64,000 nt of DNA from the NCBI RefSeq assembly GCF_006345805.1, contig NC_043005.1:108066001-108130000 (forward strand), read 5' to 3'. Positions 27,620 to 32,291 of the stretch are shown here, in pieces. The translations under genes and the position numbers were made by a program. The notes under the pieces were generated by a model. The model saw nothing but the letters and a program-made list of their open reading frames with translations, was not told where the DNA came from and did not search any database. Source of the DNA: Octopus sinensis (Eukaryota). Position 1 is the first letter of the stretch. Every line of letters starts with the position of its first letter.

Positions 27620-29290
27620 GTGTCCTTGTTTTGACATTATGCAAGAGTTGTTAATGCATATCACCTTCAAGGTGTGTCATTCATTTCCAATCTTCCACAA
27701 AAACATGTCTGGCAATGGGGAAACACTGCCTTATGTGGAAACAGGTACAGTTTGGTGACAGATGAAGCATCCAGCCGTAGAATATCTGCTTTGATGAACT
27801 GTACTGGCCACATGCAAACTTGGAAAAGTGAATGCTAAAACGACGGTGATGACGATGAAGATGATGATGATGATGTTGCCAATGACGTATATATTAACCT
27901 TAAGAATAAATATTGAGCAGTTATGATGAAAATATTTCTTTCATGTGAAGGGATAAGCTGAGAACTCAGTGGAAGGGAAATAAAATTAATTTTTGTATAA
28001 TTATATAACGATATACGAATACATGGTGTAGAATGCATTCATATTTATTCAACTGATGCTTTCTTCTGTTGCTTCAAGCTGCACTGTTTGTTTACCCTGT
28101 TGCGCAGCGATCTACAATGATTATTAGCCATTATAGACCCATTAGATTGAAGACTTGTGGAACTTGAAAATGGCAGAAGAATCCAATGGAAACATAAACT
28201 ATTATATAAGCATGCACAAACACTCTCTCTCTCTCATACACACGCACACACACACACACACACGTACACACACACGCACACAGAAGCATAATCCAATTAT
28301 CTTTACTTAGACACATTATCCAGCTTCAAGATGGCATTGTTCTAAGCTTTAATACATTTGTTCCCATTTTCATCCTTGAGGTTTTAAGGAAAACAAAATA
28401 ACGTTCAAAAACAGAAATATTATTATTTCTAAGTCTCTAAAGAAGACTACGGCAGCGGTGCTGGATATTAACAGTTATCACCAAGCTAATATGGCAGTCC
28501 ATAAATATAGGACGAAAGCTGCCGTTGATTAGCTCCAAGAGGCCATCGCCTCTAGCTAGCTATAAGACACACGAACCTGTGTCCATTATAACCTTCGAAC
28601 AGGAGAGGTCAGCCACTTCCCCTTGCTGATCAGGCATCTGCAGACATGTTTCAGGCTATTTGCTGTTCTAATCACAATTTAAATGCTTGTAATCCAGTTG
28701 TAATGCTTCCCTAATATTCTAATTCTTTTAGTATTTGGGGCATAAGGACTACAGTAAAACCAAAATATTTAATCCTGCTTTTCGTTTTGTTTCCTTTAAG
28801 CTAAATCACCTTAATGAAGGCAGATGAGGAAGTGGAGGACATGGAAAAGAACCTCCTCTTACAGCTGACGTATTAACCCTTTAGCATTTAAATTGGCTAT
28901 ATTTGACCCCAAAACTCTACCTGCTTTATGCTCCAGCTAGACTGATCTCACCTCTCACACCAAAAATTTGATTCCAAATTTTGGCACAATACCAGCAAGT
29001 TCAAGAAAAGGGCTAAGTAAATTGACCCCAGTGCTCAACTGGTACTCGTTTTATCCACCTCAAAAGGTTGAAAGTGAAAGTTAACCCTTGCTGAAGTTTA
29101 AACTCATAACATAAAGATAGATGAAATGCCACGAAGCATCTTGCTCAAGCCTGTCTATGATTCTGCCAGAAGCTTCAAGATATAGCATGATTAATTCAAA
29201 ACAATGTGAATAAAACCGTTCTATATTTAAGAGATGAGGAATTATGTACATTATTTACATTGATGGATATTTGTCCTCATCTTGTTTGTT

Positions 29291-29337
29291 GTTAACATGT
29301 TTCGGCTGATATACCCTCCAGCCTTCATCGGGTGTCT
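29291..29337 (-). ncRNA. Hammerhead ribozyme motif (degenerate copy)
   Basis: GACAC CCGAUGA A GGCUG-GAGGGUAUAU-CAGCC GAAAC AUGUU: 5-bp stem II and a core with U4C; stem I/cleavage region looks damaged. Confidence 0.65.
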
Positions 29338-29397
29338 TGGGGAAATTTTGAACCTGGGTTCTCATTCCTAAGGTATTTTCCGATGTTATTGTTATTA

Positions 29398-29456
<59 letters not shown>

Positions 29457-29457
<1 letters not shown>

Positions 29458-29690
29458 GCTGGACATTGTTGTAGAGCTGAAAACGAGGCAATTTCTACTC
29501 TTCTCCTTTGGAAGCCATCTGATCGCAATACCAGAGGGCGCACACTCCTACCCTGATGTAATCTCCAGGGTTACAGGCATCCAACAACAGGACCTCCGTA
29601 ATGCTATGATGGACCGTGAAGTCTGGCGTAGCATGGTAAATTCCATTGTCTCGACCATGGTCAAACAATGATTATTATTATTATTATTAT
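29457..29690 (+). mobile_element. 5'-truncated RTE/RTE-X-type LINE 3' end inserted in an (ATT)n tract
   Basis: AGHCCR..LLLWKP..RGR..YPDVISRVTG..DLRNAMMDREVWR is typical of the RTE-clade ORF C-terminus; stop at 29669-29671, then (ATT)n; one frameshift. Confidence 0.85.
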
Positions 29691-30959
29691 TTAAGTCACT
29701 GCTTGGAATCGAACTCGGAATTATGGGGTTAGTCGCCTGTGCTCTTAGCCACTATGCCATATGCCCACGGGCATATGGCGTAGTGATTAAGCGGGCCCCA
29801 GTGTCAAACTCTCACCTTCATCAAAGGCCAATGACATAACATTGGCCATTGAAAAGGTGATTACACTGGCAGTGCTCCACCATGGCCATGGCCTGGACTG
29901 AAACATATAATAGAATAAAAGAATATGCAGGGTTACAGCTGACCCTTCTGCCCAAATATTTACATGTCCAGTCTATGATTGAATCTGTACATCGAGTATT
30001 GGGATGTACTGATATTGAAAGCTATACAAATGAAGAAGATGGTCATCAATGGATTATATATCTTACCGCCTGAAAGGCCCTCATGCCGGTGGCACGTAGA
30101 AGCATCCACTACACTCTCGGAGTGGTTGGCGTAGGAAGGGTATCCAGCTGTAAAAACTCTGCCAGATCAGATTGGAGTTTGGTGCAGCCATCTGGTTCGC
30201 CAGTCCTCAGTCAAATCGTCCAAACCATGCTAGCATGGAAAGCGGTCGTTAAACGATGATGATGATGATGATGATGATGATAAGGAAGCAAGATTTTCGA
30301 ACATAAGAAAGTTCTAAAGAGTACAAAGTAAAAGAAATGATACACCATCATCCTCATCATCGTCATCATCAGCATCATCATCACCACTACCACCATCATG
30401 ACTGCTACTATCGTTTTTCTCAGAGACGGAGTTGATGGCATCCTCAACGATAAGAATTTTAGAAACAATAGAAAAACAACAACAACAACAAAAATATACA
30501 CTAATGCACTACATTACTCACAATAACAATAACAAAAACAACAACAACAGCAATAACGATTATTAGTAAAGCATTTGACATTTGATATGTTTGGGGTTTA
30601 TTTGGTAATTTAACTAAATAACAACTGCAGTAAGAACGACAGCAACAATATCAACAACAAACAACATTGGCAGAAATAACAACAACAACTGTGAAACAAG
30701 GTCAACATCAACTTCAGGAACAACAAGAATATTGACAATCACAAGGAAATTTCACAAAAACACCAGCATAATCATCACCAATGGCAACTGTAATTGCAGC
30801 CGTAACAACAACAACAACAACGTAATCACCAACAGCAGAGGAAAAAAATTACAAGAGAAACATCAATCGTAAATTTGTTGTGAATAATGATTTACCAAAA
30901 AATAGTCAAGGTTTTATTTTTCAGATGTTTTTTTAATGGGAGTTGGGATGGATGTGGTT

Positions 30960-31700
30960 TAAAGGGGATAGGGATGATGGTGGTGGTGGTCATGGCAACA
31001 ACAATATTGATGATGAAGATGATGATGATGATATAATGACGACGATGATGATGATGAGGACAACAACATCAACGATGATGATGATGATGAGCTCAACAAG
31101 AACAACAACGATGATGATGATGATGATGATGACTATGACGACGATGATGATGATAATGATGCTGATAATGATGATGATAATGATAAGGATGATGGTGATG
31201 ATGAAGATGATGACAACGGCGACGATGATGATGATGATGATGGTGATAACAATGATGATGAGTATGACGATAATAATGATAATGATGCTGACAATGATGA
31301 TGATGATGATGATGGTGATGATGACGATGATAATGATATGAACGACGATGATAGTGATGATGATAATGACGCCAATGATGGCGATGATGATGATGATAAT
31401 GAAGATGACCACAATGACGATGATGCTGTGGATGATGATGATGATAGCAATGACGGTGATAATACAGATAATGGTGATGATGATGATGATAATAATAACG
31501 ATAGTGATGTAGACAATGATGATGACAGTGACGATGACGATGATGATGATAGCGGTGTGGTAACGATGGTGGTAGTGTAGTGGCAGTGGTGCTGATGATG
31601 ACCACGATAGCTACAACAATGATGATGATAATGAAGAGGAGGATGTTCATGATAGTGGTGGTGGTGGTTGCGGTGGTGATGCAGTAGCAGTGCTGGAAGG
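30960..31700. repeat. Degenerate (GAT)n-rich low-complexity tract
   Basis: gat/gac/aat trinucleotide repeats. Confidence 0.9.
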
Positions 31701-32291
31701 GGTGTTCCTTGAAGTATAAGTTGTGTTTGTTCATTGTGTGGTGGAACTGATTAAGGGAGTGTCGTATTAGCTTAGGAACAAAAATAATATATTTGATTGT
31801 TAATTTCCTGCAAATTTAAAACATGACAAAATTATCTCCAAAAATTGAATAAATAATTGCAAATAAATAAAAATTAAATAAACAATTTAAAATAAATAAA
31901 TATATAATAAGATAATAAATTTAAATAAATTGCAATGAAAGCATTTATAAATAAATATATAATATGTAGAATAAAACAAATTTATTTTTATCTGTCTTTT
32001 CCCTAGTTTTATTCATTGAATTATCGACATGCTGGGGCATAACTTTTAAAGCTCTTTAGTAGAATATGTCAAGCCTAGTAATGTTTTGGTGTACCATATC
32101 CTTTTATTCTTTTAAGTGTTTCAGTTATTTGACTGTGGCCATGCTGGAGCAGTGCTTTTAGTCAAACAAGCCGACCCCAGGACTTCTTCTTTGTAAGCCT
32201 AGTACTTATTCTATCGGTTTCTTTTGCAGGACTGCTAAGTTACAGGGACGTGAACACATCAACATCAGTTGTCAAGTGAAGGTAAGAGAGG

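Follow-up and report, generated by a model that had tools for sequence, protein, structure and literature searches.

A hammerhead-bearing, SINE-like repeat of Octopus sinensis as the pseudo-LTR of a Penelope-like element with a likely Pol III promoter

The repeat analyzed here lies on the minus strand of the window (the whole 64-kb stretch of Octopus sinensis contig NC_043005.1 that was analyzed, the numbering of which is used for positions; the host genome, G000, comprises 2.72 Gb) and is best explained as a solo copy of the pseudo-LTR (pLTR) of an autonomous Penelope-like element (PLE). The tRNA-like head of this pLTR is likely to serve Pol III as a promoter and thereby to determine where the RNA begins, and we assign the reading as a whole a probability of about 0.65. 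The family itself is a real and abundant PLE family, and its head, linker and tail are the pLTR of an element with an ORF of RT plus presumed GIY-YIG type, not a separate parasite. The preliminary description of this DNA had presented the repeat as a Pol III SINE mobilized by a PLE, an interpretation that our results support in part.

The window copy and its family

All the features named in the preliminary description (head, boxes, split (AAT)n linker, hammerhead-like motif, hairpin and inverted arm) are present in their places on the minus strand. The parts of the window copy are as follows.

29692..29766, minus strand: tRNA-derived head of the pLTR (closest to tRNA-Arg(ACG) in a comparison with 11 isoacceptor types)
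29749..29759, minus strand: A box (from the sequence; consensus in the available text of PMC8969392)
29705..29715, minus strand: B box, 33 nt behind the A box, with one mismatch to the printed consensus (available text of PMC8969392)
29671..29691, minus strand: (AAT)n linker, head side (from the sequence)
29458..29670, plus strand: later insertion of 213 nt that splits the (AAT)n linker and is foreign to the element (3' end of a younger LINE)
29386..29457, minus strand: (AAT)n linker, tail side (from the sequence)
29218..29385, minus strand: tail of 168 nt, the 5' end of the PLE ORF, stopping at the family's 'long' 3' end
29363-29365, minus strand: predicted ORF start ATG inside the tail
29294..29336, minus strand: minimal type I hammerhead motif, mutated in this copy (from the sequence; available text of PMC4209133)
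29232..29282, minus strand: terminal hairpin (arms 29232-29251 and 29263-29282)
29762..29791, plus strand: short inverted second arm, native family positions -7 to +23 (tRNA start = +1), without a 3' part

The late arrival of the LINE insert in the linker is borne out by its relatives, as 38 of the 40 further matches listed in the host genome are 95-96% identical, and one match (L256) continues into an open frame of LINE C-terminal type; the insert is presumably RTE-like. The (AAT)n linker looks like an insertion hot spot, with other elements inside or right behind it in the window (29458-29670) and at L034, L050, L122 and L131. The inverted duplication of the head, formerly delimited as a 23-nt arm at 29769-29791, is present with 87% identity to the head start but is better read as a native second arm from -7 to +23, the first 5 nt of which overlap the long arm through the 5' palindrome (the spacer sequence being taken from ORF loci). 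The T4 run at 29212-29215, previously regarded as the first such run and as lying at the element end, belongs to the flank, and the majority head and tail of the family contain no T4.

Taken by itself, the window copy is decayed. Its ribozyme is damaged, with a C replacing a core U and 3 nt gone at the cleavage site, and the exact CTGATGA..GAAAC pattern has no occurrence in the window. ARAGORN called no tRNA across the window, an Rfam scan of positions 27000-32000 at E<=10 returned neither a tRNA nor a hammerhead match, and the window tail alone folds no better than its shuffles (z -0.91). No TSD was detected for this copy, the second arm of which is cut short. Three further stretches of the window were noted. 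A second family head with a short inverted 5' arm lies at 27444-27528 (minus strand) and stops just past the B box, linker and tail being absent and a T4 run coming next; a different repeat at 30060-30280 ends in a (GAT/CAT)n run and has similar sequence at several other loci; and a (CT)n(AT)n(AG)n palindrome at 27000-27080 gave many spurious miRNA matches below gathering scores.

At the family level, a 29-nt stretch of the hammerhead motif has 2455 exact occurrences in the host genome and its control none, which places the motif beyond chance. Forty evenly chosen 10-kb stretches contained two loci with four tail arms, corresponding to about 27,000 arms (95% range 7,400-70,000), and the exact 29-mer was kept in none of 34 unselected arms, which implies more than 29,000 arms in the genome. 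Throughout the genome, which has roughly 3x10^4 tail arms, the head occurs in linkage with the (AAT)n linker and the hammerhead tail. The working sample consisted of the first 70 of 100 listed 29-mer matches, all on contig C1, in which focal arms (n=64) were picked on stem II plus GAAAC and partner arms (n=34) were unselected. The proposed check of head-tail linkage yielded a head on at least one arm in 49 of these 70 motif-picked loci, and a head match lies close by in 22 of the 29 best tail matches. Arms are 91-93% identical to the majority sequence, and copies differ by decay only.

The consensus that had been predicted for the ribozyme, CUGAUGA..GAAAC GUU GUGUU with an AACGUU palindrome, is restored exactly by the family majority. 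The core CUGAUGA is found in 48/64 focal and 22/34 partner arms; GAAAC-GUU-GUGUU is the commonest form (36/64 focal arms, which were selected on stem II and GAAAC, and 5/34 partner arms); and core and cleavage triplet are both kept in 35/64 and 6/34 arms, respectively, and not in the window copy. The majority has the hammerhead core, an extra nucleotide before stem II and the palindromic AACGUU, all of which are described for PLE minimal hammerheads in the available text of PMC4209133. The family majority carries a minimal hammerhead motif in its pLTR, as EN+ PLEs do. This hammerhead is predicted to depend on dimer formation or on a helper protein, and it appears not to define the ends of copies. 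Starts within +/-4 nt (8 nt) of the cleavage site were seen in four of 103 unselected arms, versus 13 in the preceding 67 nt and 11 in the following 40 nt, which constitutes no excess among these arms and gives no sign of the self-cleaved RNA template that had been suggested; an apparent cluster of starts at this site in ORF loci turned out to be an artefact of the 3-nt loss in the window copy. The result is consistent with in vitro work on an anole element, in which insertion does not require cleavage (PMC11167929, available text). It also bears on the idea that the family is retrozyme-like, with tandem units that self-cleave, circularize and are copied as circles. The intact hammerhead of the majority and the proposal that animal retrozymes are PLE derivatives (bioRxiv 10.64898/2026.07.22.740005, available text) speak for such a mode of propagation; copies nonetheless do not start at the cleavage site, their arms stand head-to-head rather than in tandem, and no tandem head-to-tail hammerhead units were found at the 70 loci, making it extremely improbable.

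The unit as part of an autonomous element

The preliminary description had called for a search for an autonomous PLE with the same tail, and one was found, with ORF and RT upstream. At L021, an open frame of 281 aa of RT-thumb/endonuclease type lies upstream of the tail and ends just before the linker; it contains a motif that we take to be that of a GIY-YIG endonuclease. A Pfam scan of the 281-aa/ORF protein named no GIY-YIG family, and the label leans on the motif and on homologues; a PDB search returned no PLE structure and weak group II RT matches only. Upstream of the endonuclease-type frame lies a PLE-type RT (RVT_1 E 8e-6, below Pfam's cut-off), and 33 of the 34 homologues at E<=1e-20 are 504-847 aa long, most of them with RVT_1.

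Searched against the genome, the 281-aa protein gave 139 scored matches among 10,886 candidates. The head lies downstream of the ORF in 27 of 30 cut-out ORF loci (two of which, L042 and L060, resemble one locus counted twice), about 30-215 nt from the match end and mostly 35-37 nt past the ORF stop; in the other three it is deleted, fragmentary and absent, respectively. Upstream of the RT, four of 20 examined loci (20 of the 40 listed) go from the tail directly into the ORF, and two of these four begin at the head (positions -2 and +4) and lack a preceding ORF. At L243 and L244, pLTR sequence is present at both ends of a 2.5-2.8-kb body. One tail frame is open, and its translation matches the N-terminus of a natural 847-aa homologue (P0005) with 48% identity over 348 aa, in an alignment that runs from residue 24 and begins inside the hammerhead. 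At both ends of a 2.8-kb element, the ORF stop, 35-nt spacer, head, (AAT)n linker, hammerhead and ORF start stand together as one unit. Since the head follows the ORF stop and opens full-length copies, and the tail encodes the ORF N-terminus, the 'SINE' is the pLTR itself. The single ORF with PLE-type RT, and the pLTR at both ends overlapping the ORF start, are those of an EN+ PLE. At L234 and L243, a stretch of about 27 nt across the long RT start site is present as three tandem repeats, immediately after the 5' pLTR's long 3' end.

These results bear directly on the model in the preliminary description, in which an independent Pol III SINE with a borrowed PLE tail is moved in trans by a head-less PLE. 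The tail is indeed not LINE-derived, as had been stated: in place of the LINE-derived tail with simple-repeat end of a SINE, it has PLE ORF start sequence and two fixed ends. The head, by contrast, is not an addition made by a parasite, since the autonomous family has it at both ends. Short copies are commoner than ORF-bearing ones (56/70), the ORF of the L021/L031 locus reaches the tail without a head, and solo copies with intact boxes could be transcribed and re-mobilized, as mobilization in trans would have it. Nevertheless, no position among 75 head and 149 tail positions separates 28 short from 27 ORF-bearing arms (smallest p 0.07), and this likeness suggests that the short copies do not constitute a separate non-autonomous SINE lineage. 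The trans-mobilization model is therefore largely refuted, and we consider it highly improbable.

Insertion signature, 5' ends and transcription

Insertions consist of head-to-head arms, one with a long and one with a short 3' end, inside a TSD. The inverted arm abuts the 5' end at 39 of the 70 loci and lies within 450 nt at 46, so that inverted 5' arms, as noted in the preliminary description, are common in the family. The 3' ends are concentrated at two sites, one near tail positions 138-151 ('short', inside the loop of the terminal hairpin) and the other near 171-174 ('long', 14 nt beyond the hairpin), and 41 arm pairs comprise 33 long/short, two short/short and no long/long combinations, plus six with an end elsewhere. 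Once 24 loci without clear outer ends had been dropped, 46 were left for the TSD test (33 pairs and 13 singles), and 19 of these show an exact flanking direct repeat of at least 7 nt (18/33 pairs and 1/13 singles; 0.41 when shuffled). With one mismatch allowed, a TSD of at least 10 nt (length 10-15 nt) flanks 24 of the 33 complete inverted pairs, versus 0.6 (maximum 2) when shuffled, contrary to the earlier prediction that TSDs would be absent. An inverted 5'-truncated arm, an optional tail on one end and a short TSD are the marks of PLE insertion, and the same features are described for rotifer and other PLEs in the available text of PMC3846280 and PMC8557442. The two fixed 3' ends are consistent with the two internal RT start sites demonstrated in vitro for the anole element (PMC11167929, available text).

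In the mechanism that we propose, the RT-GIY-YIG protein would nick both target strands, and reverse transcription would begin at two internal sites at the terminal hairpin, for which the anole element provides the in vitro precedent. If the RT were primed in the 5' pLTR, or on the short RNA of a solo copy, it would reach the RNA 5' end after about 270 nt, and the product would be SINE-like; ORF-bearing copies, 5'-truncated at scattered points, would result from priming in the 3' pLTR. A separate SINE lineage is not needed, because the RT start sites lie inside the pLTR and a full-length RNA primed near its 5' end would yield a solo pLTR.

Compared with 11 tRNA isoacceptor types from the host genome, the head scores best with tRNA-Arg(ACG) (67, z 8.1; next 59.5), and Arg(TCT) equals it in identities (51) but needs more gaps. 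tRNA-Ile(AAT), the first guess as parent, reached 55.5. Identity to tRNA-Arg(ACG) amounts to 18/21 positions in the boxes versus 33/54 elsewhere in the head (p 0.054). The boxes match, with one mismatch and 33-nt spacing, the SINE consensus in the available text of PMC8969392, and lie 9-15 nt from ends at -7..-2; tRNA-derived SINEs have a comparable head, with both boxes, close to their 5' end. About 90 listed matches to the tRNA-Arg(ACG) anticodon-arm motif, spaced at ~206 nt, occur at G000:C2:3121907-3162222, an array of tandem tRNA genes or a tRNA-derived satellite, and 20 tRNA-Ile(AAT) motif matches are clustered in ~51 kb at G000:C4:115571573-115622577.

The 5' ends of the longer arms at the 70 loci fall in linker or tail (21), in the head (13), at -10..+8 (24) and at -42 to -698 (12), with none at -20..-11. 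The pile-up at -10..+8 compares with 1.7 ends expected by the rate elsewhere (P 7e-20), the ending rate being 5.1% per nt within this interval versus 0.4% and 0.3% on its two sides. Because ends pile up there and for 17 of the 24 the palindrome cannot be the joint (P 3e-12), we infer that the 5' end of the RNA lies at -10..+8. ORF sequence is present upstream of the head in 14 of the 70 loci, including two loci outside the 5'-end tally, which indicates that longer RNAs serve as templates too.

T4 runs are absent from 2.5 kb of L244 and 1.2 kb of L242 and occur once in 2.8 kb of L243, with many in the flanks. Across 73,038 nt (131 segments, 111 loci), runs of at least four T occur at 0.29/kb versus 2.21/kb by composition, any one T4 site is common to at most two copies of the 131 segments, and the majority sequence (2719 positions) has no shared T4 site versus 13 for T3 and 29 for A4; all these data in effect describe one ancestral sequence, and the 5' half of the ORF is covered by just 8-15 copies. 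Phe codons are TTT in 5/21 cases versus 100/186 T-ending codons (54%) in other two-fold families (p 0.011). In eight control PLE contigs from metagenomes the corresponding figures are 78/128 and 512/812 (p 0.69), with 51 T4 runs versus 49.4 expected. A codon shuffle of three decayed natural frames predicts 3.2 T4 runs, and two are present (P 0.33; P of zero 0.017); these frames also lack G4 runs (0 versus 1.1 expected). One metagenome PLE contig (L252:2627) has a hammerhead-like motif behind the ORF and no A/B-box match.

Sharp 5' ends, A and B boxes, no shared T4 and avoidance of TTT, unlike the control PLEs, would together point to Pol III transcription of the whole element, which in turn would explain the absent T4 runs. 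On these sequence data, use of the head by Pol III seems probable, and read-through of the entire ORF, of which we are less sure, has somewhat under an even chance. The fuller scenario is put forward just as tentatively: an autonomous element would have swapped its promoter for a captured tRNA gene, been transcribed by Pol III end to end (2.8 kb) with its coding-strand terminators purged, and, through internal priming, given rise to tens of thousands of SINE-like pLTR copies. The translation of an uncapped Pol III RNA, which this scenario leaves unexplained, counts against it. So do the single ancestral sequence behind all T4 data, the thin coverage of the 5' half of the ORF, the codon-shuffle result, the missing G4 runs and the longer template RNAs.

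The same observations could be read differently if the head were an inert tRNA or SINE relic in a pLTR transcribed by Pol II or by read-through, and the short copies were 5'-truncated cDNAs that stop or fold back at the palindrome. In seven of the 24 clustered ends, both arms lie within -10..+13, in accordance with fold-back, but the remaining 17 are not palindrome joints, and the palindrome amounts to a 4-5-bp hairpin, equalled in strength by stems within the head. The pile-up does coincide with the palindrome, a type of sequence known to occur in PLEs at pLTR 5' ends and at inverted junctions (PMC3846280, available text), and we count this against the Pol III explanation; two full-length copies, however, start at the head without an inverted arm. 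Short and long copies are indistinguishable, and G4 is as absent as T4, as a relic would allow, whereas the avoidance of TTT is specific. We consider an inert head unlikely, and the Pol III promoter remains our preferred reading.

Three raw RNA runs of one study, the species label of which may differ from that of G000, and one contig set were aligned to L243. Mate directions are equal in depth and, in the three runs, 76-81% of aligned reads extend into unlike sequence, a pattern that fits copies embedded in host transcripts. The three runs show no pile-up of RNA 5' starts at the head or the cleavage site, and the data are uninformative on Pol III. Strand-switch joints at L243:327-382 appear in all three runs (X21-X23, about 25-120 reads each) and are probably inverted-junction copies within expressed host transcripts.

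Relation to known elements and significance

As far as the available texts go, the octopus element resembles canonical EN+ PLEs (Penelope/Poseidon; anole PAc, PMC11167929; Adineta Pen, PMC3846280) in that the RT is followed by a C-terminal endonuclease (in the octopus element a presumed one), the pLTR overlaps the ORF start, where a minimal hammerhead lies (PMC11167929, PMC3846280), and insertions have an inverted 5'-truncated arm, an optional tail of ~25-35 nt on one arm and ~10-nt TSDs. It departs from them in that its 5' ends cluster at the head and its sense strand lacks T4, and its pLTR opens with a tRNA-derived A/B-box head, unlike those of rotifer PLEs, for which a TATA/Inr-type Pol II promoter has been proposed. 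With Schistosoma SMalpha/Sj-alpha (PMC6765202 and PMC8490949, available text) it shares a Pol III-type promoter and a type I hammerhead in a short repeat; that repeat is in tandem and cleavage frees its units, whereas octopus copies are dispersed inverted pairs, and no autonomous partner with the same promoter is reported in those texts, whereas the octopus unit lies within an autonomous element. Animal non-LTR retrozymes (PMC7229834; bioRxiv 10.64898/2026.07.22.740005) are likewise short non-coding hammerhead units related to PLE pLTRs, but the octopus family has no tandem arrays and has a tRNA head; the available text of the bioRxiv report contains no mention of tRNA, and that of PMC7229834 mentions it in connection with ligases only.

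The architecture, which according to the preliminary description is not known to have been described, is in print in one part, since a Pol III SINE-like repeat with a hammerhead has been reported in schistosomes (SMalpha, PMC6765202, available text) and retrozymes as PLE derivatives; on the other hand, no PLE with a tRNA-derived pLTR was found in the available literature (including PMC8967140 and PMC13282606), Repbase, Dfam, SINEBase and the 1994 octopus SINE sequences being outside the comparison. The new part would be the combination of 5' ends at the tRNA start, A and B boxes and a T4-free sense strand, suggesting Pol III transcription of a whole PLE. Among the octopus SINEs OK, OR1 and OR2 of Ohshima and Okada (1994), OR1 and OR2 are reported to be of tRNA-Arg origin, with copy numbers near 3x10^4, in which they would resemble the PLE family described here. 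Repeat databases may already contain the short unit under the name of a SINE. The available text of PMC4758252 places OR2 among the CORE SINEs, at odds with a tail that stems from a PLE ORF.

The mode of PLE transcription and the cause of their inverted insertions with a one-sided tail are still open questions in the field. This family supplies naturally occurring products in the tens of thousands; their sharp 5' end, two fixed 3' ends and TSDs put the internal-initiation model directly to the test. Some of what is annotated as 'tRNA SINE' in genomes of this kind may consist of PLE termini. Were the entire element transcribed by Pol III, it would be a natural case of an ORF whose translation proceeds from a Pol III RNA, and it would link an autonomous element directly to a SINE-like family; the element would then be a jumping gene of an unusual, self-sufficient kind that also produces short SINE-like copies of its own.
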